In this document: positions 6,490 to 33,759 of the stretch, in pieces
How positions within the stretch are numbered: position 1 is the stretch's first letter
Layout of the letters: every line of letters starts with the position of its first letter
Assembly: GCF_035594765.1 (NCBI RefSeq)
Contig: NC_085842.1
Coordinates: forward strand, 78,344,782-78,408,781
Source: Anolis carolinensis
Taxonomy: Eukaryota
Length of the DNA stretch: 64,000 nt
Direction of reading: 5' to 3'
Position numbers and translations under genes: made by a program
The notes under the pieces: model-generated
Database searches by the model: none
Told to the model about the DNA's origin: nothing
What the model saw: only the letters and a program-made list of their open reading frames with translations

Positions 6490-6580
6490 GCCATATACTG
6501 GCGGAGAGTTTGATTCATAATTACAATATAACAATAAAACAACATAGCAAGGAACAAATAATAGTACGTAAGAGAGGAGT

Positions 6581-7648
6581 ATGGCAACTTTCAAGGGAAA
6601 GCTGGATAAAGATTGGAAAGAGCTGAAAACAGGTCAAAGAAGGAACTCGATCCCGGCCCCGGATGAAGTAAACTTGAAAGATCTTTTGAGAGAGATCCAA
6701 CGGGTCTCGGAGAAACAAGACCTGCTACAGAAGGACATTCAAGCCATTGCCAGTAAACAAGACTTGCAACAAAAATTATTTCAAGAAGAACTGACTGAGT
6801 TAAAAAAAGAGCTGAGAGAGGAGATGTACACAATCAAAAGTGAGGTGCAAAAAAACTCAAAGGACATTCTTGAACTGAGAGATGAGAAAGTAAAAGAGGA
6901 AAGAACACGAAGTAAACTACAAAGGAGAGTAGAAGGGATTGAAGCTAAGAATAGTAAATTAGAAAAATTACAGGAAAAGATGGAATTAAACGAAACGGAA
7001 TTCCAACTGAGATTTAGGAATGTCCAGGAAGAGGCTAAGGAGAATATCAGAAGCACCATAATTAGTCTAGTAGCAAAAGCTATGAACAGCAGCGAACAGG
7101 AAACCAGTGCTCAGATTGATAGAGCATATAGAATAAACACGAACTATGCAAAAAAAAATAAAGTGGCTAGGGATGTAATTGTCCATTTCGCAAGAAAAAA
7201 CTATAGAGACGAATTACTGAGGAATAATAAAAGCAATCCAATTATCCACAAAGACCGAAGAGTTGCGGTATTAAAAGAGTTTCCACTATCTATATTAAAC
7301 AGACGTAGGAACTACTTCTTTCTTACGGACGAATTAAAGAGACTGCAAATAAAATTCCGGTGGGAGAAATACGAGGGGATTATGGTGACCTACAATGGTG
7401 AAAAAAATTGGATTACTTCTGAAGAGAAGGCAGACGAGTTTTACCGAAAATTGAAGAAAGATTTATCCCAAAAGAAACAACTGGAATCGGCAGAAAAGGA
7501 AAAAAATCCCAAGGACACAAAAAAAAGAAGATTCGACTCTCCCAAAGAAGCTGAGGAGCTATTGATCCAGTTTTCAAAGGACAAAGAGACTGAGGACTTA
7601 TCGGATAGCGTGGAGGAAGTAGAAGAGGAGATAGCGGCAAATGAATGA
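6581..7648 (+). CDS. L1 ORF1p (coiled coil, RRM and CTD; 355 aa)
   Basis: Heptad-rich N-terminus; LRFRNVQEE, IDRAYRI and RDVIVHF motifs of L1 ORF1. Confidence 0.93.
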   Translation: MATFKGKLDKDWKELKTGQRRNSIPAPDEVNLKDLLREIQRVSEKQDLLQKDIQAIASKQDLQQKLFQEELTELKKELREEMYTIKSEVQKNSKDILELRDEKVKEERTRSKLQRRVEGIEAKNSKLEKLQEKMELNETEFQLRFRNVQEEAKENIRSTIISLVAKAMNSSEQETSAQIDRAYRINTNYAKKNKVARDVIVHFARKNYRDELLRNNKSNPIIHKDRRVAVLKEFPLSILNRRRNYFFLTDELKRLQIKFRWEKYEGIMVTYNGEKNWITSEEKADEFYRKLKKDLSQKKQLESAEKEKNPKDTKKRRFDSPKEAEELLIQFSKDKETEDLSDSVEEVEEEIAANE

Positions 7649-10600
7649 TTTTAACCAATCAATAAAGGTTTTCTCAAACAACATCAACGGTCTGAATGCG
7701 CCCACAAAGAGAAAAAGGGTATATAATTATCTAAAAAAGAATAACTTTGATGTAATTGCTTTACAAGAAGTGCACATCAAACAAAGCCAGGCCAAATATT
7801 TGTTTAATGACAACCTGGGAAAGTTATACCACTCTCTAGACCGGGAGAAGAAGAAAAAAGGAGTGGCCCTGTATATTAACAATAAATTAAATCCATCTTT
7901 AGAATTTAAAGATAATGAGGGTAGAATAGTAGCAGCGAAAATTGAATCAAATTCAGAAACAATTTTAATTTGTAATATTTATGCACCTAACGGGCCAAAA
8001 AGAAAGTTTGTCAAAAATTTAAGAAACCATATTAGGGAGAGTGATTTTAATCACATTATTATAATGGGGGACTTCAATGGTATATTGGAAAAAAACAGAG
8101 ATAAAAAAGCACATAAAAAGACCATAACAAACAACATGTTACCACAGAATTTTATAGATCTAAAGAATGAATATGACCTCCACGATTCGTGGAGATTGAG
8201 AAACCCCACCCAATTAGATTATACATTCTATTCAAGTCGTCACAACTCGTGGTCAAGAATCGACATGATTTGGGTGTCTAAATTGTTAACCACTAAAATA
8301 AATAAGGTAGAAATTATGGCTAGAGATTTATCTGATCACGGTGCTATGTTAATGGAAATCAATAAGAAAAAAATAAATTTGAAATGGAGATTAGACGATA
8401 ATTTAATTAAAAGAGAAGAGGACATCGTTAAAATTAGGCAAATGACGAAAGAATATTTTAAATTTAATAATATTCAAGAGTCTGACCCACTAATTATATG
8501 GGACGCATACAAGGCAGTGGCCAGAGGGTTCTTTATTCAGCAAAAGAAGTTGAAAACGAGAACGAAAAAGGAGAATTTAAAAAGATTACAAATTCAAATA
8601 GAGCAAAAGGAAAAAGCACTTAAAGCGAATCCGGGTAACAATAAAATAAACCAGCAGTTGACCATTTTTAGGAACCAGAAAAAAAACCTCGAATTAGATA
8701 ACTTAGCAAACCAGATAAAGTGGGCAAAGCAATATTCATTTGAAAACGCTAACAAGCCTGGAAAGTGGCTTGCTAGATTATTAAGGAAGAAAAGGTATAG
8801 TCAACAAGTACTAAAAATTAATTCGCAAGGGAGAACAGTGTATACTGATGAGGAAATAAAGGAAGAATTTAAAAAGTATTATGAGCAACTGTACGAAAAG
8901 GAAGGGATCAGCCAGGAGGAAATAGTAAAATATTTATGCAAGCAAAAATTGCAAAAGATAACAGATGAGCAACGATTAGACTTAAATAAAGCAATAACAC
9001 CCGAAGAAGTGAAAGAAGCGATAAAAGAAACAGAAGCAAACAAAGCGCCCGGATTAGACGGGTTTATAGCTGGGTTTTACAAAATTGAACAGGAGGAGGT
9101 TATTGCACATTTGGTGCAAATAATGAATTTGGTCTTAACAGAAAGTATTATCCCAAAAACGTGGAGTGAAGCGGAGATAATAATGATCCATAAGGAAGGG
9201 AAAGATCAAAGTGATGTTAAAAATTATCGACCAATAGCGCTGCTAAATACGGATTACAAACTCTTTACAAAAATTATGGCAAAAAGATTATCAAAATTTT
9301 TAAACAATTGGATCGCAGACGACCAGTCAGGCTTCTTACCAAACCGCAGCACAAAAGATAACATCAGGATAATAATTGACGCAATTGAATATTACGAGTA
9401 TAATCACCAAAAGACAGTAGGCTTTCTCGCACTAGATGCTGAGAAAGCTTTTGACCAGTTGAATTGGGATTTCATAAAATTGCTATTACGAGAATTAGAT
9501 ATGGGGGCACAGTTTCAAAATACTATAAATGCTATATATACCCAGCAAGGAGCTATCATTAGAGTAAACGGTCAGACGTCGGGAAAATTCAATATTAATA
9601 GAGGAGCTAGACAGGGCTGTCCACTCTCGCCGTTGATTTTCATAATGACCCTAGAAATTTTATTGCGTTCCATAAGGGAAGATAGCAAGTTAGTAGGAAT
9701 TAAAGTAGATAGTCAGGAAATAAAAGCCAGAGCATTCGCGGATGATGTAATCTGCATAATAGAAAACCCTAGGGATAATACAAGAATTTGGCTAAATAAA
9801 ATTGAAGAATTTGGAAAATTGGCAGGGTTCAAAATTAATAAAGACAAATCAGTAATGTTGACAAAGAATCTGACATCACAGGACTTGGAAATAATAAAGA
9901 AAGAAACGGGACTCCAATTTGCAAACAAAATTAAATATTTAGGCATCTGGATTGCGTCAAAAAATAATCGCTTGCTGGAACTTAATTACGTGAGGAAATG
10001 GAAAGAAATAAAAAAAGATCTGGAGGAATGGAAAAATTTAAAAATATCTCTGTTAGGCAGAATAGCGACAGTAAAAATGTCAGTCCTTCCAAAGATGCTG
10101 TACTTATTCAGGAACATTCCCATAATAAGGAACAATCAAATATTCAACAATTGGAATAAAGACATAAGAAAATTTGTGTGGAACAATAAAAGACCCAGGA
10201 TCAAGCTCTCGACGATGCTAACTCCCAAAGAAAGAGGGGGACTTGATTTGCCAGACCTCAAATTATACCACGAGGCCTGTGCTTTAGATTGGATTAGAGA
10301 TTGGGCGAACTTAAAAAAAGCGAAAATTTTATCATTAGAAGGCTATAATTTAAGAAGGGGCTGGCATGGGTATTTATGGTATGGTAAACATAAAATTGAA
10401 AGGAATTTTGGTAATCATTTTGTGAGATCGGCGCTACTAAAAACTTGGACTAAGTATAAAAGATTTTTCTATGAAAAGACTCCGCTGTGGCTCTCGCCGT
10501 TAGAAGCATATCAGAGACGAGAATTAGGGTGGATATCCTGGCCAACGTATAAGGAGGTGTTAAACTGGTCAAACAGGAATGGATTACCAGAGATAAAGAA

Positions 10601-11393
10601 GTTAGAAGAAATTCAAATCAAATATAAGAATATATCATGGCTACATTATTACCAATTAAGAGATTGTTTTAGGGCTGATAAAAAACAAGGTTTTAGTCCA
10701 TCTGATGAGTTTTGGGATATTATTTTACAAAGAGAGAAAAAGGTATTAACTAATTTATACAATAAATTAGTGGAGTGGAACACGGAAAAGGAAGTAATAA
10801 AGGAATCAATGCTAAAATGGTCAAGAGATATAAACAGGCCAATTCTACTAAATGAATGGGAGGCGATTTGGAATAAGAAAATCAAATACTGCCGGGCCAC
10901 TGACCTCAAGGAAAACTGGATTAAAATCATTCATAGGTGGTACCTGACACCTAAAAAAATTGCCTTAATGTATAACAATATTGATAACAAATGTTGGAGG
11001 TGTAAAGAGCAGGTGGGGTCTTACTTCCACATGTGGTGGAGCTGTAAAAAAGTTAAAAAGTTCTGGTCTATAATTAACGTGGAAAGTAGGAAAATTCTGA
11101 AAATAAATTTGGAATGCAAACCTGAATACTATTTATTAGGGCTATACAATATCTTCGAAAATGAGAATAAAGTAGAAGCGAAAAACAAGGAGAATTTAGA
11201 TAAAATTTATACTTATTTAATAACGGCTGCGAGACTGGTAATTGCCAAAGATTGGAAGAATGCAGAAACCCCTACGAGAGAGATGTGGCTAAACAAAGTC
11301 ATGGATATTAAGAACATGGACAAGTTAACTTTTTTGATTGAAACGGACTGGACACTATTTGAAGACTATGTAGAAGAAGAGCTAAGAAGATGA
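7641..11393 (+). CDS. L1 ORF2p (APE endonuclease, reverse transcriptase, CCHC domain; 1250 aa)
   Basis: NINGLN, LQEVH, NIYAPN, GDFN and SDH (EN); YRPIALLN, DAEKAFD, QGCPLSP and FADD (RT); CWRC...HMWWSC. Confidence 0.96.
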   Translation: MNDFNQSIKVFSNNINGLNAPTKRKRVYNYLKKNNFDVIALQEVHIKQSQAKYLFNDNLGKLYHSLDREKKKKGVALYINNKLNPSLEFKDNEGRIVAAKIESNSETILICNIYAPNGPKRKFVKNLRNHIRESDFNHIIIMGDFNGILEKNRDKKAHKKTITNNMLPQNFIDLKNEYDLHDSWRLRNPTQLDYTFYSSRHNSWSRIDMIWVSKLLTTKINKVEIMARDLSDHGAMLMEINKKKINLKWRLDDNLIKREEDIVKIRQMTKEYFKFNNIQESDPLIIWDAYKAVARGFFIQQKKLKTRTKKENLKRLQIQIEQKEKALKANPGNNKINQQLTIFRNQKKNLELDNLANQIKWAKQYSFENANKPGKWLARLLRKKRYSQQVLKINSQGRTVYTDEEIKEEFKKYYEQLYEKEGISQEEIVKYLCKQKLQKITDEQRLDLNKAITPEEVKEAIKETEANKAPGLDGFIAGFYKIEQEEVIAHLVQIMNLVLTESIIPKTWSEAEIIMIHKEGKDQSDVKNYRPIALLNTDYKLFTKIMAKRLSKFLNNWIADDQSGFLPNRSTKDNIRIIIDAIEYYEYNHQKTVGFLALDAEKAFDQLNWDFIKLLLRELDMGAQFQNTINAIYTQQGAIIRVNGQTSGKFNINRGARQGCPLSPLIFIMTLEILLRSIREDSKLVGIKVDSQEIKARAFADDVICIIENPRDNTRIWLNKIEEFGKLAGFKINKDKSVMLTKNLTSQDLEIIKKETGLQFANKIKYLGIWIASKNNRLLELNYVRKWKEIKKDLEEWKNLKISLLGRIATVKMSVLPKMLYLFRNIPIIRNNQIFNNWNKDIRKFVWNNKRPRIKLSTMLTPKERGGLDLPDLKLYHEACALDWIRDWANLKKAKILSLEGYNLRRGWHGYLWYGKHKIERNFGNHFVRSALLKTWTKYKRFFYEKTPLWLSPLEAYQRRELGWISWPTYKEVLNWSNRNGLPEIKKLEEIQIKYKNISWLHYYQLRDCFRADKKQGFSPSDEFWDIILQREKKVLTNLYNKLVEWNTEKEVIKESMLKWSRDINRPILLNEWEAIWNKKIKYCRATDLKENWIKIIHRWYLTPKKIALMYNNIDNKCWRCKEQVGSYFHMWWSCKKVKKFWSIINVESRKILKINLECKPEYYLLGLYNIFENENKVEAKNKENLDKIYTYLITAARLVIAKDWKNAETPTREMWLNKVMDIKNMDKLTFLIETDWTLFEDYVEEELRR

Positions 11394-11659
11394 ATTAAAC
11401 AGGAAGACTAACAGAAGATAGTAGAGCGGAGGTCCATCCCCCTCCCCTTCCCCACCCCACTCTAAGGGCCCTTTACCTATTATTTTCCCTTTCCCTCCCC
11501 ACAGGTCTGGTCTCCCCACGCACTACCCACCCCTTCCCCTCCCCTCCCTTAATTCCCTGTCCCATAACCTACCTCTCCACCCACCTTTTCCCTTAGACGA
11601 TAAGTGTTATCTGGAAATTCTTTAATAAAGATCATTTAAAAAAAGAAAATAGAGGCCTG

Positions 11660-12404
11660 GTACCGAACCGATGACGAAGCCTTGGAATGGCTCAAGCATC
11701 ACCCTGACCCAAACTCCATGGTGGTAAAGGCCTCCCAATCGTCGGGTCGACAGTCCAACTCCCCTGCCGACAGGGAAGGTAAACGATTCGATGCGGTAGG
11801 CCGCAAGCTGTACTCCGGCGTTCTCCTCCTTTGCCGTATGGCGAACTACGGGGCCTGCATGGGCGCTTATCAACAGATCCTCAGGGGAAAAGCCCAACCT
11901 TTCTTCGCCAAACTTTCTGACGAAGACCGGTCAGTCCTTTCGACCCTCCAACAGGAGGCGGACTCCCTCGCACACCACCAAATTCAAATGGCTAAACATA
12001 CCGGTGATACCGCCGGAAAAATGATTGCCCACGCAGTCGCGATCAGACGGCATGCATGGCTTCGGTCCTCAGGACTCTCTTCTTCCTCTCAACAAGTGAT
12101 CGAAGACCTTCCTTTCGACACCCAGGGCCTTTTCAATTCTGGTACTGATGACAAACTGAAGTCCAATCACGACTTCAAGATTCTCGCAACAAAGTGCGGG
12201 ACCGATCAACCTCAGACTCAGCGGACCCGATGGTTCCCGCAACGGTACCGTCGCTACCCTCAGCCTTTTCGTCACCAGCCGTTTCGACGCTCGTCGAGCT
12301 CGAGTCACCACAGTCATCAGCAACAACCTCGCCGCCAGCACCAGGTTCCGAAAGGTCGGGGCAAGGGTGCTGCAGCTATGCCACAACCCCAACGACGGGC
12401 CTGA
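11660..12404 (+). CDS. DIRS ORF1 (gag-like, LAP2alpha-related domain), C-terminal part
   Basis: Removing the L1 and one TSD copy gives ...SKKIEAWYRTDDEALEWLKHHP... in frame (685 aa in total); RRHAWLRSS and DLPFD motifs. Confidence 0.88.
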
Positions 12405-13948
12405 CGCCCACTCTCTCTCTTTTCTACCTTCACTGCTACTGCCACTGCCATGCCGTTCCTAGGCCCCGACCAGATCCTTCCTCTCTGCTCTTTCCTCGAT
12501 CGCCTAGCTCCTTTCTACCGCGAATGGGAGTCTATAACCTCAGATGCCTGGGTTCTTCGCATTGTCAGAGACGGCTATGCCTTGGAATTCGAAACTTTGC
12601 CCCCCACGGGTCACATCCTCCACACCGACCCTTCACCGGAAATATGCTCCGAGGTCGACTCCCTTCTGGCGAAGGGCGCAATCCAGCCTTCTCCTTCCGA
12701 GCAGGACACTCAAGGTTTCTTCTCGAGATACTTTACGGTTCCCAAACGGGGCGGAGTTCTTCGGCCTATCCTCGACCTGCGAGCCCTAAACCTCTTCATT
12801 CTGCCTTCAAAATTTCGAATGGTCTCGGTGGCCTCCATTCTCCCGATGCTCCGACACGGAGACTACTTTGCCTCTATAGACTTACGCGATGCGTATTTCC
12901 ACGTCTCGGTGCGTCGATCCCACAGACGCTTCCTTTCCTTCAAGCTCCTGGGACAGTCTTACCAGTTCACAGTTCTCCCTTTCAGCCTCGTCACGGCCCC
13001 AAGGGTCTTTACGAAGGTGGTCGCCGTGGTGGCAGCGCACCTCAGAAAACAGGGCATAATGGTCTTTCCTTATCTGGACGATTGGATGATTGTCGCGTCC
13101 GACCCCTCATCCCTTCAAAACCACGTCTCTCAAGCTCTTTCTCTTCTACAACGGCTGGGCCTTCAGTTGAATGTCTCAAAGTCCCAACTCCTCCCGACCA
13201 CAGAGATCCGCTTCATCGGAGCTCTCTTCAACTCCATCGCGGAAACCGCCTCCCTACCGAAGGACAGGTTCCTAGCCCTTCAACAACACCTTTCTCTCCT
13301 CCTCCGCAACCGCAGGATCCGAGCCCACTCTGTCCAAGTTCTTCTGGGTCACATGGCCTCCACGGTCATGGTTACTCCTTTCGCCAGACTACATCTCAGA
13401 CCTCTCCAAAGATGGTTTATAGACTCTTTCAAACCCCATCGGCATCCGAGCTCAATGTTTCTCACGGTACCGAACCAGGTTCGCCTCTCCCTTCGTTGGT
13501 GGCAGGACCCAGCGAACGTTTGTGTGGGACTTCCCTTCCATCCCTCCCTCCCGTCAGTCACCATCACGACCGACGCCTCCAATTTTGCGTGGGGAGCCCA
13601 CATGTCAAACCTCACCGTCAGGGACCTTTGGTCCATCCAAGAGAAGTCTCACCACATAAACTTTCTAGAACTGTTATCAATCTTCAAAGCCCTCCGGGCG
13701 TTTGCTCGCTTTCTTCCCCACAAGACTGTTCTGATACAAACGGACAATGTAGTAGCTATGTACTACATCAACAAACAAGGGGGTACGGGCTCGAGAAAAC
13801 TGATGACTCTCTCGATGGACATTTGGCTATGGTGCATAGCGAGACACATAACCCTGTCGGCGGTTCACCTTCCGGGGGCTCAAAACACGCTAGCAGACTC
13901 TCTAAGCAGAATAACAACCTCCCCCCACGAGTGGCGTCTCGATCCTGA
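12194..13948 (+). CDS. DIRS overlapping alternative-frame ORF, inferred N-terminal extension of the YR ORF (first ATG at 12230)
   Basis: 584 stop-free codons in the -1 frame over RT; same frame relation as YR to the methylase domain after the frameshift. Confidence 0.65.
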   Translation: MRDRSTSDSADPMVPATVPSLPSAFSSPAVSTLVELESPQSSATTSPPAPGSERSGQGCCSYATTPTTGLTPTLSLFYLHCYCHCHAVPRPRPDPSSLLFPRSPSSFLPRMGVYNLRCLGSSHCQRRLCLGIRNFAPHGSHPPHRPFTGNMLRGRLPSGEGRNPAFSFRAGHSRFLLEILYGSQTGRSSSAYPRPASPKPLHSAFKISNGLGGLHSPDAPTRRLLCLYRLTRCVFPRLGASIPQTLPFLQAPGTVLPVHSSPFQPRHGPKGLYEGGRRGGSAPQKTGHNGLSLSGRLDDCRVRPLIPSKPRLSSSFSSTTAGPSVECLKVPTPPDHRDPLHRSSLQLHRGNRLPTEGQVPSPSTTPFSPPPQPQDPSPLCPSSSGSHGLHGHGYSFRQTTSQTSPKMVYRLFQTPSASELNVSHGTEPGSPLPSLVAGPSERLCGTSLPSLPPVSHHHDRRLQFCVGSPHVKPHRQGPLVHPREVSPHKLSRTVINLQSPPGVCSLSSPQDCSDTNGQCSSYVLHQQTRGYGLEKTDDSLDGHLAMVHSETHNPVGGSPSGGSKHASRLSKQNNNLPPRVASRS

Positions 13949-15368
13949 AATCCGTCTTCGACGATTGGGGCTGGCCAGCTCTGGACCTTTTTGCCTCCCC
14001 CTCGAACGCTCAACTTCCTCGCTTCGGAGCAAGACTACCTCCAAACTCGACTCCGGGCTGTCTCGGAGACGCGTTTCTCCTCGACTGGACCCTCGAGCCC
14101 GTCTATCTTTTTCCTCCCTTCCCTCTCATCTCGAGGGTAATAGAGAGAGACTATCTAACGCCAACATCGACCATCCTGATCGCCCCTGCATGGCCACGCC
14201 AGCCGTGGTACCCAACTCTACTCCGGATGTGTGCGGATCCTCCCCGCACTCTCCCAACTCTCCCTCATCTACTATCTTCACAGAAGGGACAGGTCCTCCA
14301 CCCCGACATCCCGTCCCTACACCTGACTGCCTGGAGGATACTTCCTTAAATTCTCTCCACCCAGACCTGCAGGCGATCCTTCGTGCCGCCCATAAGCCAG
14401 CCACGTCAAGGGCCTATGCTTACAAGCTTGCAAAATTCCAAACTTTCCTTCGGGACCGACACGTCGATCCCGCCTCTACTTCGATCCCGCTGGTCCTGGA
14501 CTTCCTACTTTCTCTTGCAGATCGTCAACTCTCTCTGGCCTCGATAAAATCCTATCTCGCTGCTCTCTCCTGGCATTTCCAACGTCAGAGACAACCCTCT
14601 CTCTTTTCTAACAACCTCATTAAGACCTTTCTTCGAGGTTACAACAACCTGCACCCTCCAGTTCAACCTCCGACTCCCGGATGGAGCCTCGAACTCGTCC
14701 TTTCTCAACTAGCTTCAGCTCCCTTTGAACCTATGGCCTCTGCAGACCTTCACCTTCTCTCTTGGAAGACTGCCTTCCTAATCACTATCACCTCTGCGTG
14801 CAGGTCTTCGGAACTGGCTGCTCTTCGGGTGGACGAACCCTACCTCCGTTTCCACCACGACAGGGCTGTTCTTCGCCCGGACATCACCTTCCTACCTAAG
14901 GTGGTCTCTGCTTTTCACCTTAACCAGGACATAATACTTCCTGCTTTCTTTCCTAATCCTTCTTCTTCTTTGGAGCGGAGACTTCATCTCCTGGATGTCA
15001 GGAGAGCCCTCCTTTTCTACAAAGACAGGACTAAGGACATACGTAAGTCACCTAGACTGTTTGTGGCTTACGCTACCCATAAGCTGGGCGAACCACTTTC
15101 TTCTCAAAGACTCTCACACTGGATTGCTCAGACTATCGAACTCGCTTACCAGCTGGCTAAACGCCAACCCCCCTCTTCGATCCGCCCTAGATCAACGAGG
15201 GGCCTTTCCACCTCTACTGCCTTCCTGAGGGGCGTCCCTCTCGACTCCATCTGTCGAGCGGCTATCTGGTCCACTCCATCCACCTTTGTTTCACACTACA
15301 GGATGGACTCAAAGAACCTCAAGGACTCGGCCTTTGCCAGGTCTATCCTTTCCTCCTGCCTTGCCTAA
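12450..15368 (+). CDS. DIRS RT-RNaseH read in frame into the tyrosine recombinase (972 aa; fusion caused by a frameshift near 13945)
   Basis: RPILDLR, SIDLRDAYFH, LPFSL and YLDD (RT); TDAS/ELL/QTDN/ADSLSR (RNaseH); RSSEL, FLPKV, RSTR, W and HY (YR). Confidence 0.9.
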   Translation: MPFLGPDQILPLCSFLDRLAPFYREWESITSDAWVLRIVRDGYALEFETLPPTGHILHTDPSPEICSEVDSLLAKGAIQPSPSEQDTQGFFSRYFTVPKRGGVLRPILDLRALNLFILPSKFRMVSVASILPMLRHGDYFASIDLRDAYFHVSVRRSHRRFLSFKLLGQSYQFTVLPFSLVTAPRVFTKVVAVVAAHLRKQGIMVFPYLDDWMIVASDPSSLQNHVSQALSLLQRLGLQLNVSKSQLLPTTEIRFIGALFNSIAETASLPKDRFLALQQHLSLLLRNRRIRAHSVQVLLGHMASTVMVTPFARLHLRPLQRWFIDSFKPHRHPSSMFLTVPNQVRLSLRWWQDPANVCVGLPFHPSLPSVTITTDASNFAWGAHMSNLTVRDLWSIQEKSHHINFLELLSIFKALRAFARFLPHKTVLIQTDNVVAMYYINKQGGTGSRKLMTLSMDIWLWCIARHITLSAVHLPGAQNTLADSLSRITTSPHEWRLDPEIRLRRLGLASSGPFCLPLERSTSSLRSKTTSKLDSGLSRRRVSPRLDPRARLSFSSLPSHLEGNRERLSNANIDHPDRPCMATPAVVPNSTPDVCGSSPHSPNSPSSTIFTEGTGPPPRHPVPTPDCLEDTSLNSLHPDLQAILRAAHKPATSRAYAYKLAKFQTFLRDRHVDPASTSIPLVLDFLLSLADRQLSLASIKSYLAALSWHFQRQRQPSLFSNNLIKTFLRGYNNLHPPVQPPTPGWSLELVLSQLASAPFEPMASADLHLLSWKTAFLITITSACRSSELAALRVDEPYLRFHHDRAVLRPDITFLPKVVSAFHLNQDIILPAFFPNPSSSLERRLHLLDVRRALLFYKDRTKDIRKSPRLFVAYATHKLGEPLSSQRLSHWIAQTIELAYQLAKRQPPSSIRPRSTRGLSTSTAFLRGVPLDSICRAAIWSTPSTFVSHYRMDSKNLKDSAFARSILSSCLA
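13945..14349 (+). pseudogene. DIRS DNA N6-adenine methylase-like domain, out of frame with RT
   Basis: Manual translation: LKSVFDDWGWPALDLFASPSNAQLPRF...DAFLLDW...YLFPPFPLISRV...ILIAPAWPRQPWYP...LHPDIPSLHLTAWRILP*. Confidence 0.85.
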
Positions 15369-16701: not shown

Positions 16702-17667
16702 GTAAGTGAATGAGGAAATCCTATATTTTTTTTTAAGTTTTCCTTTTTGGATAACTTTTACTTCAGTGATAATGGTGGGTGCATTTTATTTCCCTGATTT
16801 TGAATTTATCTAGCCTGGGATTGAATAGTTGCAGTTCAGGTATATACAAACTGCATCAACAGAAGTTTGCATGGCCATCTTTCAGCAATGCTTTAGTTGT
16901 GTATTCCTGCATGGAAAGGGGATGAAATTGCCAATATCAAATGGATTCCTAGATGCCAGAAGAGTTTAGCAACATAATAAGGAAGCTAGGGATGAGGGAA
17001 GGATTAGCAATTTTCTTTAAAAAAAAATCTTTCTCATTGTACATTTCTAGCATTGGTCCCTGCCTCCCTGTATCCAGAAAATCCATGGGACCTGTGGAAA
17101 ATTCATTATAACAAAATTCCAGATTCTGTAAAAAAAATGATCAAACCTCACTCTCCATATGTGAAAACCATTCAGTTATACAGTTTTCAAATAAGTAGTT
17201 GTGTTAGTCTGTTGCAGTAAGAATAATTCGGGGGAAAATAATCTAGCAGCACCTTTAAGATTAAGATTGATTATATAATATATTGATTTATATTTTAGCC
17301 AGGGCTTTTCTGATACTATAGTTGTATCTCCTCAAAGTTGTTGTCTATTTCTGATCATCTCTATCTACTAAAACTAGTGCTAAAATAGAAACCAATATTA
17401 AAGGTGCTGCTATAATCCGTTTTTTCTTCTCCGTTTCTTTCCCCCTTTTTGTTTAATCAGATGGCAATAAGACATATGGGCTTTTTGAAATAAATCTCAG
17501 AGTAACTTACTTAGATACAAACACTGGGTTATCTTGGTATAGGATTTGAAATACTTGGGGGCATTGGTTTTTTCAGCTGCCCATTGCTGAATGTGATCTT
17601 GAAATTTTCAAACTATTTTAACCTAGATTGTCATATGTGTTCTTTGTGTTGCTTGTTATTTTTCCAG

Positions 17668-17884
17668 ATGGGTATCCTTGGTCCATCTGGGCAGCAGGCA
17701 CCACCCCCCTATCCTGGTCAAAATCCAGGAAACCAACAGGTCATGCAACAGCCTACAACTCCCATGTTTGTCTCTCCTCCACCAAAGACCCAGAGACTTC
17801 TTCACTCAGAGGCTTATTTGAAATACATTGAGGGTCTTAGTGCTGATTCAAGTAGCATTAGTAAGTGGGACCAGACCCTTTCAG
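17668..17884 (+). CDS. PBRM1: Polybromo-1 penultimate coding exon (MGILGPSGQQAPPPYP...RLLHSEAYLKYIEGL...WDQTLS)
   Basis: ttccag/gtaaga boundaries; conserved C-terminal motif. Confidence 0.96.
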
Positions 17885-19768
17885 GTAAGAACATTTGGAT
17901 TATACACAAACTCTAAAAAAAATTTTAAGAGACTCTTTCATTCCATTATGGCTGTGCTATACAAAAAAATTCTCAGTTGCTGTTTCACAATTATATCCTC
18001 ATAGACCTGGGCAGGAAAATGATCTGGGAATACAGCAGGAATAAATTACAATTTCTGGTACAATTGGTCATAGGATGTTTAATAATGAAGACTACATTAT
18101 TTTTAAATCAAATGGCCTTGTTTGATTTTAAAATAAGTTATTTGTTATATCTTTTATCTGTTATATAACAAATGTAAACTGAAAACAACAGTAAATCCCA
18201 TATTAGATGTAGACTAGTTTAGAATTTGACCAAAATCCAATTGCAAGTCTCAGCTATAGTAAATTTCTTGACTCACATTGTTGAATGGTTAATCAGTAGT
18301 CACGTAACTCCTGTTGCTTCAGAGAGTGTAGTTGAGACTTGCAGTTGGGCTTTATCTTAATACACCAGTACAAAATTGTGCCTGTAGTAGTTCGGGTTCT
18401 TACAATATGCTCCCATTTCAAACATGATGTAGAACTGAATTGTACGTAGTCTTTTAGCATTGACTCTTATCACTAGCTGTTTCAATAGATAAAAAGAATT
18501 TCTATAAATTTCTTTTATCTGTCGAAACAGGCCTGATTCCTCATTTCTATCCCTGAGATTAAGAGACTGAGAGTCCTTCCTACTCCTACTTGTCAATTAG
18601 TTTCTAGATTCCGTCTGGGATCATGTTTATGAACTTCTGGGCCACCTTAGCGCCCAACCAGACAGGCTGAGTTAACATCAGCATTCCACTAAAGAATACT
18701 GATGTACTGGATTCTTAGGACATTTATATGGGAAATTGGGAGACTCTTTAGTGATATTTCAGGCTAGAAATGCACCCCTATGCTCAGTGGACATTTTGGA
18801 ACATTCCAGGGCAAAAAGAAAGTTTTGGGGAAACCATTTCAAACATTGTTTTTGACTCATGGAAGGCTCAGGGGACCTCCAAACATAGTAGAAACACCCT
18901 CTACACACACCAGAATGGTTTTGTAAGCATTCTAAAGGGAAATAAACTGTTTGGCAAAAATTGATATTTTTTTACCTAGAGGCCACCACACTCTGGCCTT
19001 CCTGATCTATAATTTTTTTTAAAGTTGGTAAGTTTATGTGTACTCTATATTTTTGCTACCAAATATTTCTTAACTTTACATGTGGTGTTGAGCAGCACTG
19101 TCCCATTTTTATAGTTATGGGAATGAAGCATTAAAAAAAGACCTCTCCCACTAAGTAGAGAACAGGGAGGCCTAGTGATTTTTACTATTTCCTCCTGCAT
19201 TCTATTATGTAATTCAGAACTCTATTATGGTGGGTTAAGAAGCCATGCAGGGCAGATGAAGGCTGGTGAACATTTCTCTTTCAGCAATATTGGAAACAGT
19301 AAAAAAAAAAAACCAACAACATAAGGGCTGAGAGCTGTAGCCCCTAGGAATCCTGCAACTCTCCCTGCCCTTATCCCCTTAATGATTCCTTTGTTGAGTT
19401 GTGTTACTGGGCCTCAGGATTGCCTCTGAAATGTGGACTTGTGGCTGTGCTGATGTGTGGGTTCATTACTATTGTACACATGGCCTACCTCCAATTTAGG
19501 ACTTAGCAAACAGCCAGAGTTGGGTTTTAAACAACAATTATGGGATTATTGAACACAAAAGTAAAATATATTAAATTCTAATAATCTATTCTTTAGGCTT
19601 TCCAATACCATAGGTAGTTCTTGGTTCTTTCTTAAATCCAAACTTTTATCAGTTCAACATCCATCTTGTGTCAGCTTTTTAAATTGCTGCATTTATATTC
19701 CCAGTGATTGTATAAATAAGTAATTTAAGCAAAGGAGTCCTATGACTGCACAACCTTTATTCTTTCAG

Positions 19769-24912: not shown

Positions 24913-25063
24913 AAAAAGTCTCTTTGCCGATACGAACATTGATCATAAACCATTCCATAGCACCTCCAAGAAGAAAGAAGAAAGGGAGAAATCTATAAAT
25001 GCCAAAGCGCTGCTTTCCAGGCACCATATACAATAGCCGCTTTATTCTATGGCTGATGTGCAT
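24913..25063 (-). CDS. SMIM4: SMIM4/UQCC5 first coding exon (MHISHRIKRLLYMVPGKQRFGIYRFLPFFFLLGGAMEWFMINVRIGKETF)
   Basis: Diagnostic VPGKQRFGIYRFLPFFF.LGG.MEW motif; GTAAGT donor at 24907-24912. Confidence 0.93.
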
Positions 25064-25909
25064 TTCCTGTGAGATGGAGGCTAATTCTGGAGGGGAAAAA
25101 ATGGATAATAGTCAACACTGCTGGGGGTAGGGTGCAGTATTGGCACATTCTTCAAATGTTTCAATGATAGTTAAGAAATGTGTTGTATTTTCTTGTCTTC
25201 CTCCTTGGTACTCTTAAGAGTTTCCCAGTATTACACAATTCCATGGCTGATTGGCAATATATGATCTTAGAACACTCAAGTGTACTGATTTGTACATTTC
25301 AAACCTGTCTTACATACATTATGGGTTGTATACAATATTCCTGAGTGCTGGAGTAGGACTTTGAAGACTGATCACAACTCAGCCATGGAAACCCATTGGG
25401 TACAAATCTTAACTCCTAGCATTACGAGGACGGCAATTGTACATTTTGTCGTAAGAACCCTATGATAGGGTTGACCTAAGATGGGGTCATCTTGAAGATA
25501 CATTAACCACATATTCTACAAGTGTGGAATATTAGACCCTCTTAAATAGTTCATGGAGGAAAAGTGACACAAAATAAAACAGCTGGAGCTCTTCTTGTCT
25601 CCTATTACAGTCAGTGCTCCACTATCACAGGGGTTAGGGACATAGGAACCCCGTGAAAGTGAACAATAAGGACATTGCTATTTTTTTTTTACCTGAGAGA
25701 ACACCTTTAGGGATTTTTAAATCTTCCACTGTGACAATATGATCAACTTTTGCTGAAAGCTTATCATAGAATTGCTTGGAGGACCTGGAGGGAACATTTT
25801 TATGTAAACAGTCAAATCGGGAAAGGCCAAAATCAGAAATGTGGAAGGATGGCGATCCATTATTTGGTGTTTTATTCAAGCAGTAGGCAACCTCAAAATT
25901 GGTAGCCCA

Positions 25910-26895
25910 ATACGCTGTACATTGTACCAAGTTCAAAAACTGCAATTGATTCAAAATATGGCAGCTAGATTGGTCTTGGAAAATTCTTGATTTAAGGTGT
26001 TGGCATGCTGGCTGACATCCAAACAGAGGATGGGCTGGAGGTGTCAATGCCTTGGTCCTTTTGTTATTGGCTGCTACTGCCTGACGGATGTCAGGTGGTG
26101 CAATACCGGCTAAACAGACTTCACTCTGGGACAAGACGCAGAGCCAATCTTAAGAAATGGGGCTACAGATATAGGAGTGTGGAGAAGAGCAAACCACAAA
26201 CTGCAATGCAGCCTGAACCCTGTCACGTGCACAATGGAGGACCTTCTCACAGCAACACCAGAGGCGAGCTTCTGGAAATTTAGTATAATGTCAAGTTTTA
26301 ACTTTCTTTGTTTTTTATAATACATTATAATTGTTCCCTCAATTCGCTTATGACATGATAAAATAAGCCAGATTGAGCACAGGAACATACAGGAGAGAGC
26401 ATATTACACCTATCCTAAATTCACTCTATTGGCTGGCAATTAGTTTCTGGGAAATGCACAAAGTATTGGTTTTGACTCTTAAGGCCCTGCATGGTTTGGG
26501 TCCAGGTTACCTACAATATCGCCTTCTCCTGCACGATGTGCCTTTTAGGATACTAAGGTTTTCTGGAGGGCATTCGCTTCAGTCAGCCAGAATCCAACTA
26601 GGACTTTTCATCGGCCTCCCCATGATTGTGGAAATGGCCTGCCGGAAGAGCTAGATCAGTGGTAGGAATTTAAACCACATTTGAAGACCCTACTGGTGGG
26701 CCTACCCAGTCAACTTTCAATCAGGAATTTTAAAGCTATGCTCTGTGTCTATTTTAAACTTTGTTCTGTGTATTTTAATATGCTTAAAGATATGTTTTAA
26801 TCTATTTGTATACTGAATGTTTTTACAATGTGTTTGGTAATATTGTGCCCCGCCTCGATCCATTAGGAGAGGCAGGTAAGAAATGAATTATTATT
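25910..26895 (+). mobile_element. L2-type LINE 3' fragment split by a Vingi insertion
   Basis: KLQLIQNMAARL (to 25972) continues as STGTYRREHITPILNSLYWL...LKALHGLGPGYL (from 26376). Confidence 0.8.
25973..26365. mobile_element. Vingi-type LINE remnant with 5' inversion
   Basis: Minus-strand LAGIAPPDIR...HPLFG.QPA..HLKSR joined to plus-strand LNRL.SG...ANLKKWGY...CGEEQT and 3' tail; TSD AGC(T/C)AGATTG at 25963-25972 and 26366-26375. Confidence 0.72.
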
Positions 26896-26907
26896 ACTGT
26901 ATTATTG

Positions 26908-27780
26908 TATGACACAGCAAACAAGATAGATATGCTAGATTTCATATCACAAAATCACAAGTCGAACACTTTCCAAGTGTCTAGGACTGTGTGATGTATT
27001 TTCGGATGATGTGTGCAGTTCTCAGTAGGGTGGCCTTTTGCAGTTGGCAGATCATAATTTTGTCAATGTCTGTTGTTTCCAAATGCCGGCTGAGATCTTT
27101 TGGCACACCACCCAATGTGCCGATCACCACCGGGACCACCTGTACTGGTTTCTGCTAGAGTCTTTGAAGTTCAATCTTGAGGTCCTGATAGCGGCTGAGT
27201 TTTTCCTGTTGTTTTTCGTCAATGCGACTGTCACCTGGGATGGCAACATCAATGATCCAAACCTTTTTCTTTTCCACAACTGTGATGTCTGGTGTGTTGT
27301 GTTCCAGAACTTTGTCAGTCTGGATTCAGAAGTCCCACAGTATCTTTGCATGCTCATTTTCCAATACCTTTACAGGTTTGTGATCCCACCAGTTCTTTAC
27401 TGCTGGGAGGTGGTACTTGAGGCATAAGTTCCAATGAATCATTTGGGCCACATAGTTGTGACTCTGTTTGTAGTCTGTCTGTACGATTTTCTTATAGCAG
27501 CTGAGGATATGATCAATGGTTTCGGCGGTTTCCTTGCACAGTCTGCATTTTGGGTCATCAGCTGATTTTTCGATCTTGGCCTTAGTTGCATTTGTTCTGA
27601 TGGCTTGCTCCTGGGCTGCAAGGATCAGGCCTTCTGTCTCCTTCTTCAGTGTCCTATTCTTGCGCCATAGCCAGGTCTTCTCCTTATCAGCTTTTCCTTC
27701 AATTTAGTCAAGGAACTTTCCATGCAATGTTTTGTCGTGCCAGCTATCAGCTCTAGTTTGTAGTGCAGTTTTCTTGTACT
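26908..27780 (-). mobile_element. R4/Dong-clade non-LTR retrotransposon 3' fragment (CCHC plus restriction-like endonuclease)
   Basis: Degenerate ETEGLILAAQEQAIRT, KCRLCKE..ETIDHILS.C, HNTPDITVV, IIDVAIPGD and EKLSRYQDL motifs; flanked by (TAT)n. Confidence 0.8.
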
Positions 27781-27790
27781 ATTATTATTA

Positions 27791-27902
27791 CAGTAGAGTC
27801 TCACTTATCCAACACTCATTTATCCAATGTTCTAGATTAATCAAAGCATTTTTGTAGTCAATGTTTTCAATACGTTTATGTTGGATAAGTGAGACTCTAC
27901 TG
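27791..27902. mobile_element. Tc1/mariner-type MITE (TIR CAGTAGAGTCTCACTTATCCAA, TA TSD)
   Basis: Terminal inverted repeats flanked by TA. Confidence 0.85.
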
Positions 27903-28198
27903 TATTATTATTATTCTACAATGTCTTCTAAACTAAAAAGCTAGTCACATTTATGTTTGCATGTTCAGTTTGTTTTTACATGTAAACATTAGGGAGAAGT
28001 TATTGTTAGAAATTTTCTGGGTGGTATGGAAAACTACGCAAAAACAGCAGAGCATCCAGAAATATGCAAAAACAGGATTCTTATAGTCAGGCATTCAGCA
28101 CACAACAAGAAGAGTGTGAAGTGCCATGTGGCTGTGAGGAATTTTGAGCTTAGGAGGCAAACATGCATTTTTCTGACTTTAAAATCACAAAAGGTTTA

Positions 28199-28389
28199 AA
28201 GTGTTGTTGAAGGCTTTCATGGCCGGGATCACCGGGTTGTTGTATGTTTTCCGGGCTGTATGGCCATGTTCCAGAAGTATTCTCTCCTGATGTTTCGCCC
28301 ACATTTATGGCAGGCATCCTCAGAGGGCGAAACGTCAGGAAGAGAATACTTCTGGAACATGGCCATACAGCCCGGAAAACACAACAACC
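28199..28389. mobile_element. Penelope-like element terminal remnant with inverted (hairpin) arms
   Basis: Arms ~28234-28299 and ~28326-28390; 13-bp TSD CACAAAAGGTTTA at 28186-28198 and 28390-28402. Confidence 0.8.
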
Positions 28390-28726
28390 CACAAAAGGTT
28401 TATTTACAAAAATAATTACATTTCTTAATAGTAAAGAACTGGGTCTGAGCTACTCTAACTAACCCCATCTCTTCTAGGGTTCAAAAGAGAGGGAAAACCC
28501 ACCAAGCACTACATCTCTCCTGCCACATAAGCAAAGAGAGATCTCAATACATACAGCACATACCACGAAGTAAAAGTAGAAGTCAAAGACAAAAGGCATG
28601 CACCTGCAAAGTATCTACATACCAAGGTGGCTACATAACCAATCAGAATGGGAGTAGAATCAGAAATAGATACATTCTAATAGTCATTTAGGCGACACAG
28701 GGGAAAGGATATCCCTCAGCCCATTC

Positions 28727-28861
28727 CAGTGGTCCTCAATTTGTGGGTCCCCAGATGATTTGGCCTTCAACTCCCAGGAATCCTAACAGCTGATAAATTG
28801 ACTGGGATTTCTGGGAGTTGTAGGCCAAAATACCTGGGGACCCACAGGTTGGAAAACAATG
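28727..28861. mobile_element. hAT-type MITE (degenerate)
   Basis: CAGTGG termini; 8-bp TSD GCC(C/T)ATTC; same family as 31375-31509. Confidence 0.7.
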
Positions 28862-29269
28862 GCCTATTCTAAGCTAACTAACTCTTCCTCATTGAGAACT
28901 GCAGACTTGGGTAGTGTGGGGTTTAACTCCAGAAATTATTAGAGAGAAATTAGGGGCGACCCTTGTCCTTTTGACAAGGACAAAATAATAGGAAAGAATC
29001 TAGAACAGGCATGGGCAAACCGGCTGTCAGGAATTGTGGGAGTTAAAGTCCAAAAAACTTGGGAGGGCCAAAGTTTGCCCTGCCTGGCCTAGGCAATAAC
29101 TGGCACTGGTATTGTCGCTGGCCCTTCAATCACTTTGGACTGCGACTCCCACAGTCCTCTACCACTGGCAAAGGCGGCAGGGGATTCTGGGGGCTGAAGT
29201 CCAGAGACGACTAAGCACACTCAGCGCGTGCTCAACAACCGCTCACAACCCAACCCTTCCCGTCCTGAA

Positions 29270-29808
29270 TGCAGCCAATCAGGGGGCGCGGAAGAAGGCG
29301 CGAGCCCCCTCGCTCACCTCGGAAGCCAAAGGAGAAAGAAGGCCGGCGCAGAAGGCTGAACCAGGCGCAATGGAAGACCTTCACCTTGCTCCGCCCCTAG
29401 TTAAGGCAACAGCTTCATCTGATTGGCTGCTGTCTTGGAGGCGTGGCCTAGGCAGCGCTTGGGGAGGAAACGGAAATGAACAAGGAGTCTTTCGTGAGGG
29501 GAAGAACGCTTTTTAGCGAGAGGGAGTATTGATGTATAGAGATGTACAGAGATATTGTGATTGGTCGAGACCAGTGATTCCTTTGAGCCTTAGGAGTTCC
29601 GGACTTCAACTCCCAGAAGCCCCAGACCGCTTAGACAAGGGAGAGGAATTTGGGGGGTTGAAGTCCAAAACAGCTGGAGGGCCAAGGGTTGAATATCATC
29701 CGCGGGGGTGAGGCGTTATGTCGTCACATCCGGCAGTAGCGAAGTCTTTGGTTTCCTTGGAAACCCTCGAGAGGAGAAATGGGCAGCTCTGGCTAGGCCC
29801 CCTCCGCC
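29270..29808. promoter_or_regulatory. CpG-rich, probably bidirectional promoter (SMIM4 non-coding exon 1 on -, PSME3 retrogene on +)
   Basis: CCAAT boxes at ~29275, 29422 and 29560; GC box 29391-29396; minus-strand GTGAG donor at 29313-29317; ETS/CRE-like motifs near 29720-29733. Confidence 0.6.
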
Positions 29809-30552
29809 ATGGCTTCCCTCCTCAAAGTGACCCCGGAGGTTAAGATGGCGGTAGACTCTTTCAGGGAGCGAATCACAGGAGAAGCCGAAGAGCTCGTCGC
29901 GCATTTTTTCCCGAAGAAGTTTTTAGAACTGGATGCTTTCCTTCAGGATCCGACTCTGAACTTTCGCGATCTCAGCCAAATCCACTCAGATGTGAGCTAC
30001 CCTGTTCCCATCCTGCTGGGGCCAAACAGCCCTGCAGGGCCCAGTCTGAAAAAGAGGAAACTGGAAGGCAACTTGCAAGGCACCAGAGTCCTTGTGGTGC
30101 CTCAAGGGATGCCGAAGAGCAACCAGAAGCTGGTGGACATCCTGGAGAAGGTGAAACCCGAGATACGGCTGCTGATGGAGAAGTGCAACGTGGTCAAACT
30201 GTGGGTGCAGCTCTCCATTCCCAAGATAGAAGGCGGCAACAGCTTTGGGGTTTCTGTTCAGGAGGACACTGTGGCCGAGCTCCAAACTGTGGAGAGCGAG
30301 GCAGCGCTGCACCTGGACGAGATCGCGAGATACTACACCGCGCGGGCAAAGCTGGTTTCCAAAATAGCTAAATACCCTCACGTGGAGGACTACCGTCGCA
30401 CAGTAACCGAGATGGACGAAAAGGGATATATCTGTCTGAGGCTCCTCATTTTGGAGCTGAGAAATCAATACGTGCTTCTCCATGACATGATCCTAAAGAA
30501 TATTGAGAAAATCAAGCAGCCCCAGAGCAGTGAGGTAGAGGCTCTCTACTGA
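29809..30552 (+). CDS. PSME3: Intronless PSME3-like (PA28gamma/REGgamma) proteasome activator retrogene, 247 aa, intact
   Basis: MASLLKV...DSFRERIT...FFPKK...KVKPEIRLL...RAKLVSKIAKYPHVEDYRR...LHDMILKNIEKIK; strong Kozak CCGCCATGG; single exon, so a paralog rather than the multi-exon ortholog. Confidence 0.92.
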   Translation: MASLLKVTPEVKMAVDSFRERITGEAEELVAHFFPKKFLELDAFLQDPTLNFRDLSQIHSDVSYPVPILLGPNSPAGPSLKKRKLEGNLQGTRVLVVPQGMPKSNQKLVDILEKVKPEIRLLMEKCNVVKLWVQLSIPKIEGGNSFGVSVQEDTVAELQTVESEAALHLDEIARYYTARAKLVSKIAKYPHVEDYRRTVTEMDEKGYICLRLLILELRNQYVLLHDMILKNIEKIKQPQSSEVEALY

Positions 30553-30778
30553 TCAATGAACTGTTCAGTAGACTCAGTTACAGCCTTTGCCTAAATTTAT
30601 GGGACTACCAAGTCTGAAAAAGCTGGCAGGAAACAGTCCTCATCACACTTTAGTTAAACGTCTACAGAAACACATTCCTAGTGCTTTCTGGTTGGTTTTT
30701 ATTTGGGTGTTGGGGTTTGTCCCTCTCACTCATATTTTAACATGTGGAAGGTATGCCTCAGAGCTTCTTTTCCTACTT

Positions 30779-31058
30779 TTTTAAAAAAAAACATACGAAA
30801 GCAATTTGAGAACATACTGTAAGTCGCTTCTGGTGTGAGAGAATTGGCTGTCTACAAAGAAGTTGCCCAGGGGATGTCTGGATGTGTTACCATCCTAGTG
30901 GGAGGCTTCTCTTCTGTCCCTGCAAACTATAGCTGACAGATGGGAACTCACCCCATCTCACAGATTTGAACTGGCAACCTTCAGGTCAACAACCAAACCT
31001 TCAGGTCAGCAGCCCACCCAGCACAAAGCTTTAACCCATTGCACCACTGCAGCTCCTC
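30779..31058 (-). mobile_element. tRNA-derived SINE downstream of the PSME3 retrogene
   Basis: 12-bp TSD CTTTTCCTACTT at 30767-30778 and 31059-31070; tRNA-like head on the minus strand. Confidence 0.7.
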
Positions 31059-31374
31059 CTTTTCCTACTTAGGTGGGGATAACACAGTGGCTGATTTGAT
31101 TCAGGAGGCAATAATTTCCAGTTCCAGCAGTCCTGAATGCCTACTTGCCTGGATGAATGCTCCCTTCTTAGAGTACACCTACACTGTAGAATAAATGTAG
31201 TTTGGCACCACTTTAGGTGACATGGCTCAATGCTATGGAATTATGGGAATTATAGTTTTATAAGGCTTTAGCTCCCTGCCAAATAGGACAGGTGCCTCAC
31301 CAAACTAAAAATCCCATGATTTCATAGCATTGAATCAAGGAGGTTAAACTGATGTCAAACAACACCACTTAGAT

Positions 31375-31509
31375 CAGTGGTTCTCAACCTGGGGTCCCCA
31401 GATGTTTTTGGCCTACAATTCCCAGAAATCCCAGCCAGTTTACCAGCTGTTAGGATTTCTGGAAGTTGAAGGCCAAAAACATCAGGGGATCCCAGGTTGA
31501 GAACCACTG
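31375..31509. mobile_element. hAT-type MITE
   Basis: TIR CAGTGGTTCTCAACCTGGG; perfect 8-bp TSD ACTTAGAT. Confidence 0.88.
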
Positions 31510-31526
31510 ACTTAGATGCAGCTTAT

Positions 31527-31647: not shown

Positions 31648-32369
31648 TACGTTTCCCCTTGACTGTTCAGCAATATCCCTAATCTTTTTGACTATTAGCT
31701 CCTCTCGTCCATTTGTCCCATTGTGCTTTTAGGTTCTCATCCATCTTCACTTTTCTACAGAATGAATTAAAGTTCACAAAATGTGTAACTGCTTTGTCTT
31801 TATACAAGGCACAAGTTTTGTTATTAGCTTTATTTGGCATCAGTATTGGACGAGGATTATTTCTGATTATTTATTGATCACCTTATGCGGCACCACACTC
31901 CTAAATAAATAAACTCAGAGAAAAAACTGACCAACGAGAATAACTGTTTTGTTCTTTTACGTGCAGGGCTCCATGCACAGATGTACAGGGATGGTGCTAG
32001 ACAACTAGATGAGATGGAGATTATTATAGTAATTTACTCTCCCAGGGAAGCGTGTCTAGGATGACAGCAGGCGCTCTTGAGCATAAATATGCATGATACC
32101 AAACCAATGTGACACTTCCCCCCCCCCCCCCCCCGCCGCCGCCGCCTTTCTCAGTGAAAATGACAAACAGGAGTGCAAGTGAACAGACATCTCCTATTAA
32201 AACCTAATTCTTGAGGCAGATAAAAACAACAACTAGCCCTAAAAAAGAATACGCAGTGGACACATTGAGCGGAATTAATTCCAGCTCGCTGTAAATCCCA
32301 ATTGCGGTTGACATCAATTTCCCCGCAAAACCATCGCAGTCTGGGAGCGGGAAACATCAAAGCAGTAAA

Positions 32370-33249: not shown

Positions 33250-33416
33250 GGCAGGGATTGGCTGGCTGGGCTCGCCTCGCGCGGTCATTGGTCGAGCGCG
33301 CACGAGCTCCTCTGGCGGCTAGCTAGACACGTCTTCGGCAGCTGAGGGGAGCGCGAGGTGGTTCTCCTGACGGGGGCTCCGAGGGCATGGGCTGAGAGGA
33401 GCCGCAGAAGGAGGCC
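33250..33416 (+). promoter_or_regulatory. NT5DC2 CpG-island promoter and 5'UTR
   Basis: CpG-dense; inverted CCAAT boxes near 33258 and 33286; immediately upstream of the ATG at 33417. Confidence 0.65.
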
Positions 33417-33759
33417 ATGGCGGCCGTCGGGCTCAAGGCTGCGAGGGGCGGCGGCGGCGGCGGCATGTGGTGGAAGAAGGGCGGTGGGTCTGGCAGCCTC
33501 CAGCTGGTGGCCTCCTCCTCCTCCTGCCCGGGCTCCGGCAGCAGAGGCAGCGGGGGTCAGGCCAAGGCCAAGGCTCACCAGCAACCCCCGCTTTCCCCGC
33601 CCTCCGTCAGCGGCGGCAGGGCCAAGCGGGCGGCCGAGCCCAGCCGAGGAGCAGCCTCTCCGCCTTTGGGAAACCAGCCCCAGCCCGGCCCCATCGAGGG
33701 AGTCGACACCAAGGGCTACCTCTGGGCTAGGTACCACGAGATGAAGAAGCTGGTTCACG
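33417..33759 (+). CDS. NT5DC2: NT5DC2 exon 1 (Gly/Ser-rich N-terminus...YLWARYHEMKKLVH)
   Basis: GCCATGG start; LWARY.EMK.LVH motif; GT at 33760. Confidence 0.88.

Follow-up and report, generated by a model that had tools for sequence, protein, structure and literature searches.

A transcribed, intron-free PSME3 copy in Anolis with altered activation loop and tail residues: a putative further PA28 subunit

Does an intron-free, PSME3-like reading frame in the genome of Anolis carolinensis still encode a proteasome activator of the PA28 type, and which of the PA28gamma properties would such a protein retain? This question was raised by a stretch of 64,000 nucleotides (referred to as the window in the following), for which the original prediction had described a retrogene featuring an altered activation loop and lacking the C-terminal basic motif, possibly still docking on the 20S proteasome but activating it differently or acting as a competitive modulator, with altered phospho-regulation. 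The parent gene, PSME3, is a multi-exon gene. Translation of the genomic DNA revealed a single uninterrupted, intron-free ORF of 247 codons plus stop codon on the plus strand (Table 1), and this contiguity in genomic DNA is as expected for a retrogene. The deduced product shows 76% identity to squamate PSME3 (73–76% across the PSME3 comparisons), contains the PA28_N and PA28_C domains (80.7 and 202 bits, both exceeding the Pfam cut-offs), and matches human PA28gamma with an E-value of 4e-111, compared to 4e-52 for PA28alpha. An AlphaFold2 model based on an 85-row alignment reached a mean pLDDT of 86.4; its top Foldseek match was human PA28gamma (7YQC, rmsd 1.3 Å), and it features the four-helix PA28 fold. 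Judged from its sequence, the anole copy belongs to the PA28 family and, within it, to the PSME3 lineage, but neither the consensus loop nor the motif at S247 is present. Residues are numbered according to PSME3, which corresponds to the position in the ORF product plus seven.

Homology to a parent-like transcript was found to extend 24 bases beyond the stop codon, and a check for a poly(A) remnant returned a 9-base A run at 30783–30791. A target-site duplication was not found around the copy, the longest flanking direct repeat (8 bases) being at chance level. The copy probably arose when an mRNA of a squamate PSME3 was retroposed.

Table 1. Features of the PSME3-like copy and its surroundings, given in positions of the window.
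Feature	Position	Strand	Basis and details
Single-exon PSME3-like ORF, 247 aa plus stop	29809..30552	+	Translation, Pfam, predicted structure
Activation loop P145-G154	30220..30249	+	R146K 30223; D149G 30232-30234; N151 30238-30240; N152S 30241-30243
C-terminal docking tail	30514..30549	+	R244Q 30517; P245 30520; R246Q 30523; S247 30526; N249E; LY kept
Helix-3 lysines K188, K192, K195, all kept, gamma-type pore signature	30349..30372	+	Alignment; K188/K192 role from the accessible text of PMC9287138
Homolog-specific insert, 7 residues shorter than in PSME3	30010..30114	+	In-frame deletions common to A. sagrei; KKRK 30049-30060
Candidate 3' UTR remnant of retrocopied mRNA, 24 bases	30553..30576	+	Alignment to parent-like transcript; putative
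Unspliced contig-covered stretch	29435..30835	.	Run X5; X2 covers 29656-30765
Upstream ORF, five codons, in frame, good start context	29779..29796	+	12 bases separate its end from the start codon
CpG-rich region, candidate bidirectional promoter	29275..29760	.	3 CCAAT and 2 GC-box matches; putative
Neighbor exon, UPF0640 family	24913..25086	-	Spliced at both ends in two runs
First exon of downstream 5'-nucleotidase gene, own CpG island	33342..33759	+	Pfam matches on later exons

In the phylogenetic tree, the copy was nested within amniote PSME3 (support 98/98) and fell among the squamate PSME3 sequences (88/87). The protein cluster to which the copy was assigned contains the Anolis sagrei protein XP_060621851.1, whose gene has already been annotated as PSME3-like and which is 91% identical to the window protein (23 of 247 residues differ). 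A literature search covering few subscription journals returned no publication on an anole PSME3 retrogene. The stem branch of the copy is 0.29 long, followed by tips of 0.05–0.07, and its root-to-tip change amounts to about 0.35 per site, compared to 0–0.015 for squamate PSME3; as judged from the sequences, this tree shape reflects fast early change and constraint thereafter. According to the accessible sections of PMC4453063 and PMC7915322, PA28alpha/beta and the tunicate PSMEb/c/d represent fast paralogs that originated from slow PSME3. The anole copy resembles PA28alpha/beta (PSME1/PSME2) and the tunicate proteins in its long post-duplication stem, the constraint that follows, and a PSME3 that remained almost unchanged, and would add a further fast paralog to this series. 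Unlike these, it arose within squamates, is intron-free, keeps K188, and has altered loop residues.

The activation loop of the copy reads PKIEGGNSFG and its tail KIKQPQSSEVEALY, whereas human PA28gamma (PDB file) reads PRIEDGNNFG and KIKRPRSSNAETLY at the corresponding positions. Compared to PSME3 (PA28gamma or REGgamma; 7YQD and 7YQC), the copy shares the fold, N151, K188, K192, K195, P245, S247, the terminal LY (Y254), and the basic insert motif; it differs by its lack of introns, an insert seven residues shorter, faster change, and the substitutions R146K, D149G, N152S, R244Q, R246Q, and N249E, as well as K14A. Translation and alignment to human PA28gamma confirmed the predicted loop and tail spellings together with D149G, N152S, R244Q, and R246Q, and also the retention of N151, K188, and the terminal LY. 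All four substitutions are likewise present in the A. sagrei copy, meaning that they are conserved in the one orthologous retrogene found. Loss of the C-terminal basic motif, by contrast, was borne out only in that both arginines were replaced by glutamine, whereas the basic K243 is kept (R in A. sagrei). Similarly, the predicted retention of the insert KKRK, a candidate nuclear localization motif, holds for the window copy but not for A. sagrei, which reads EKRK. The consensus loop comprising D149 and N152 is absent from the copy; nevertheless, eight of the ten loop positions fit the family, the common R146K included, and E148, G150, N151, F153, and G154 are kept in both anoles. The docking tail as defined by a proline at -10 and a terminal tyrosine is present in the form of P245 and Y254. 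Position K14, which we take to be an acetylation and SUMO site of PSME3, is occupied by alanine in both anoles and by glutamate in the gecko copy described below; both anoles retain K6, K12, and T23 (29809–29880).

To what extent these changes are unusual can be seen from the family as a whole. Within the 122 proteins of the first search, D149 and N152 were kept in all 119 non-anole rows, 117 of them reading PRIEDGNNFG, one PKIEDGNNFG, and one PRKEDGNNFG. The family set was drawn from 1300 representatives at 50% identity, of which the best 150 were taken, with 148 rows having a residue in the loop and 138 in the tail. Among these representatives, position 149 was occupied by D in 138 and by G in 5 out of 148 rows, position 152 by N in 137, D in 6, and S in none, and position 246 by R in 111, K in 17, and Q in 2 out of 138. 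PA28alpha keeps both D149 and N152, while PA28beta keeps D149 and has D at position 152. R146K is ordinary, since K occurs at this position in 64 out of 148 representatives. R244 is not family-conserved either, as 121 of the 138 rows have a residue other than arginine (K in 60, R in 17, and Q in 8). The Chk2 consensus features an arginine at position -3. Judging from these alignments, R244Q matters solely for the Chk2 site, and the three changes that matter at the family level are D149G, N152S, and R246Q. D149, N152, and R246 were also the only residues altered among 38 family-conserved core sites, corresponding to 3 out of 11 sites in loop or tail versus 0 out of 27 elsewhere (p = 0.02), an enrichment that rests on three sites and weakens when the cut for conservation is raised to 90% (p = 0.16). 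Two distant, divergent representatives also carry G149, namely P0243 in combination with Q246, the same pair as in the anole copy, and P0238 in combination with T246.

Previous work on PA28 docking and activation provides the frame for interpreting these residues, and is referred to here as far as the accessible sections of the cited papers describe it. Binding is conferred by a C-terminal tail with proline at -10 and a terminal tyrosine (PMC10526260), PA28gamma residues 146–152 become protected upon 20S binding (PMC7708635), and S247 was described as a Chk2 phosphorylation site (PMC4245943). N146Y/N136Y rings bind without activating (PMC7854634), and N151Y inhibits wild-type PA28gamma (PMC7662426). 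For wild-type PA28gamma, an allosteric activation of the trypsin-like site that does not involve opening of the gate was reported (PMC9287138), whereas the K188E mutant acts by opening the gate (PMC9287138; PMC10526260). Gate opening by the loop, the premise of the original prediction, accordingly fits PA28alpha/beta better than PA28gamma, for which the accessible text reports allostery (PMC9287138). The presence of P245 and of the terminal tyrosine supports its expectation that 20S docking is retained (PMC10526260), and altered phospho-regulation is likewise suggested, because R244Q, with Q244 in both anoles, removes the arginine at -3 and thereby probably the Chk2 context of S247 (PMC4245943). 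Mutant data for D149, N152, or R246 were not found in the literature searched, the only loop mutant with data being N151/N146, a residue intact in the copy. Neither PMC7854634, whose supplementary tables may be pictures, nor PMC9388094 yielded, in the accessible parts, residue contacts of PA28alpha D144, N147, or R241.

Comparison of the two anole proteins, which is limited to two sequences with the ortholog available as protein only, revealed an uneven distribution of differences, with 17 in the 102 residues of the N-terminal part versus 6 in the 145 residues of the core (p = 0.0014). A run of 70 identical residues (103–172) covers the loop (permutation p = 0.008). The differences between the anoles are located at less conserved family sites (0.30 versus 0.49, p = 3e-5), and the same applies to the core, where 28 residues differ from the skink parent (0.40 versus 0.59, p = 8e-5). 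From this protein-level pattern, the coding sequence of the copy is judged to be under purifying selection. The rough dN/dS value relative to a parent-like transcript, with PSME3 of other squamates serving as stand-ins, ranged between 0.25 and 0.40. Squamate PSME3 proteins differ from each other at only one to seven sites; because the parent thus barely changed in protein, dN/dS on the copy's own branch may be about 0.5–0.8, which may indicate long or early relaxation. Any change from R to Q in a single step is a CpG transition, the most frequent type of mutation; this would cover R166Q, R244Q, and R246Q, if single-step; five other CpG-containing arginine codons were kept in both anoles.

R166Q is also found beyond the anoles. 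The gecko PSME3-like protein XP_048361175.1 (P0123) and the sequence P0069 share M138L, R166Q (the CpG change), and Q178E with the anole copies at sites that are invariant in the other rows. The grouping of P0123, P0069, and the anoles received support values of 87/84 and 84/77, lying under the starred threshold and involving long branches. Among the 38 conserved sites, each of the two sequences is altered at positions of its own (4 and 2, respectively), and both keep D149, N152, and the RPR tail. With D149, N152, and the arginines of the tail retained in these two squamate-type divergent copies, the alterations of loop and tail seem to be confined to anoles within the set of sequences recovered. 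A fourth PA28 gene common to squamates appears plausible. Outside the anole cluster, no copy closer than the parent was detected among the best 120 of 371 and of 1111 matches, with eight short-protein candidates; in a leave-one-out test, divergent copies ranked near the bottom, so that protein searches are weak for copies of this kind. The loop of P0069 has a change of its own, I147K, which is also present in the distant representative P0270. Two gecko PSME3-like models, P0002 and P0123, differ by an internal repeat of ~66 residues, for which an annotation artefact or adjacent tandem copies are possible.

Transcription of the locus was evaluated by a run search that returned 19 matching runs from seven studies, none recorded as RNA and 14 guessed to be RNA; runs X2 and X5, originating from two studies, were examined. 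Both were read as RNA, because the exon of the neighboring gene was cut precisely at its splice sites and the bin 31761–32067 was empty. The X5 contig spans the whole ORF unspliced with three other letters, and the X2 contig does so with one, the strand being absent from the contigs; the sole coding difference listed in the contigs, at 30276, is silent. The copy locus is therefore transcribed in both of the matching runs examined. A second X2 contig, ~85% alike (28 differences in 192 bases and 81 in about 505), is 21 bases longer over the insert and fits the 254-residue parent PSME3. In runs X20 and X21 of other organisms, no coverage of the ORF was found, from which absence of the copy should not be concluded. 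A 5' exon formed by the terminal 330 letters of the X2 contig was considered and rejected, as position 29656 lacks a splice acceptor and coincides with a repeat.

The copy resides between a minus-strand gene of the UPF0640 family and a plus-strand 5'-nucleotidase gene, as assigned by Pfam; we take the former to be SMIM4/UQCC5 and the latter to be NT5DC2. The top minus-strand splice donor within 25090–29850 was located at 29318, and a splice joint to the neighbor's first exon was not among the joints listed. The copy probably uses the bidirectional CpG promoter of its minus-strand neighbor in head-to-head orientation. In the accessible part of PMC4772013, the use of a neighbor's bidirectional promoter is described as a known route for retrogenes in human and mouse, which the copy resembles in its head-to-head position beside a CpG-rich promoter, given the putative first exon of the neighbor. 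Besides the in-frame upstream ORF, a second one begins at 29718, is out of frame, and overlaps the start codon; an upstream ORF could lower translation, its use depending on the transcription start. On both sides of the promoter region and within it, short inverted-repeat elements belonging to a single family were encountered (28726–28862, 29010–29200, 29584–29700, and 31374–31510).

The reading that we favor, held with about as much doubt as confidence, regards the locus as a transcribed, constrained, intron-free PSME3 copy that likely encodes a fourth subunit of the PA28 type; for this protein, assembly into rings and docking are predicted, with activation that is likely weaker and outside Chk2 control. 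Such a subunit would assemble into heptamers, either alone or mixed with PSME3, and would dock on the 20S proteasome via the kept P245 and terminal tyrosine. Because the side chains of D149 and N152 as well as R246 are lost while N151 remains, its signal to the 20S alpha ring would be weaker. Any residual activation would be held to the gamma type by K188 and K192, S247 would be uncoupled from Chk2 phosphorylation, and within the cell the PA28gamma activity would be diluted or tuned. The engineered N146Y and N151Y mutants, which combine a changed loop with an intact docking tail, may serve as a model for a competitive or damping role, as far as described in the accessible parts of PMC7854634 and PMC7662426; unlike these mutants, the anole copy keeps N151. 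The tolerance of natural loops, with G149 in 5 out of 148 representatives and D at position 152 in PA28beta, counts against weaker activation.

That same tolerance is also in line with the view that the copy encodes a functional, near-equivalent PA28gamma whose changes were fixed under relaxed selection and tolerated, the gene being kept for dose or expression pattern. We consider this somewhat unlikely. N151, K188, K192, K195, P245, and LY are intact, natural loops vary (G149 as above, D152 in 6 out of 148), the stem branch of 0.29 and the branch dN/dS indicate relaxation, the R to Q changes are of the CpG type, and the gecko and P0069 copies also changed at conserved sites. However, none of the 27 conserved core sites outside loop and tail changed in the anole copy, S152 was encountered in none of the 148 representatives, and the altered loop was frozen between the two anoles. 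If the activity proved normal, the copy would be an ordinary retrogene, and the loop would be more tolerant than its conservation suggests. The location of the changes is read differently when a proteasome-independent ring is assumed, which would have kept assembly and nuclear scaffold roles and lost 20S engagement, its 20S-facing surface decaying. All three conserved-site changes face the 20S proteasome, but E148, G150, N151, F153, G154, P245, and LY were kept, the loop is invariant between the anoles, and the insert, the presumed partner-binding part, is the most altered portion of the protein (19 out of 35 residues identical to the parent), making such a ring very unlikely in our opinion. 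Among the representatives, loss of acidic loop residues co-occurred with loss of R/K after the tail proline (for D149, 2 out of 8 versus 3 out of 123; p = 0.03, the rows being non-independent), which would fit a decaying surface; counting only R, the value was p = 0.13, and coupling between D149 and R246 is not claimed.

The arrangement of the locus also has to be considered under the assumption of a transcribed pseudogene, with RNA originating from the neighbor's bidirectional promoter, little or no protein, and a frame that survived by chance. The presumed head-to-head position beside an active gene and the in-frame upstream ORF agree with this assumption, and the frame remained without stop in 4–16% of neutral simulations, so that its intactness alone is weak evidence. 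On the other hand, the sites at which the two anoles differ are distributed non-randomly in relation to both domain and conservation within the family, all deletions are in frame and restricted to the variable insert, and, by rough estimate, differences from the parent-like transcript are more numerous at silent than at replacement sites. A pseudogene is thus highly improbable in our assessment.

For the favored reading of a constrained, docking-competent subunit with weaker activation, the significance lies in the fact that PA28gamma signaling to the 20S proteasome is still debated. The copy represents a natural, selection-filtered variant in which N151 and K188 were kept and D149, N152, and R246 were altered together, and it bears on the role of these three near-invariant residues and on the natural separability of docking from activation. 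A more far-reaching extension would be a fourth PA28 gene retroposed early in squamates and serving in anoles as a natural damper, which joins PA28gamma rings or caps the 20S proteasome, activates partially, and ignores Chk2. This extension is speculative and, on balance, unlikely; if true, evolution would have produced in this copy an equivalent of the engineered dominant-negative N151Y mutant.

Further upstream in the window, the region 5104–15365, situated within an intron of the upstream gene, harbors long ORFs of 358 aa (6572–7645) and 1252 aa (7635–11390). From their translations, we assume that these ORFs belong to a full-length LINE-1-like element inserted in a DIRS-like element (5104–6486 and 11640–15365). 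Neither of the exon-like stretches at 2622–2999 and 17515–17913 had a Pfam match; both presumably belong to PBRM1.
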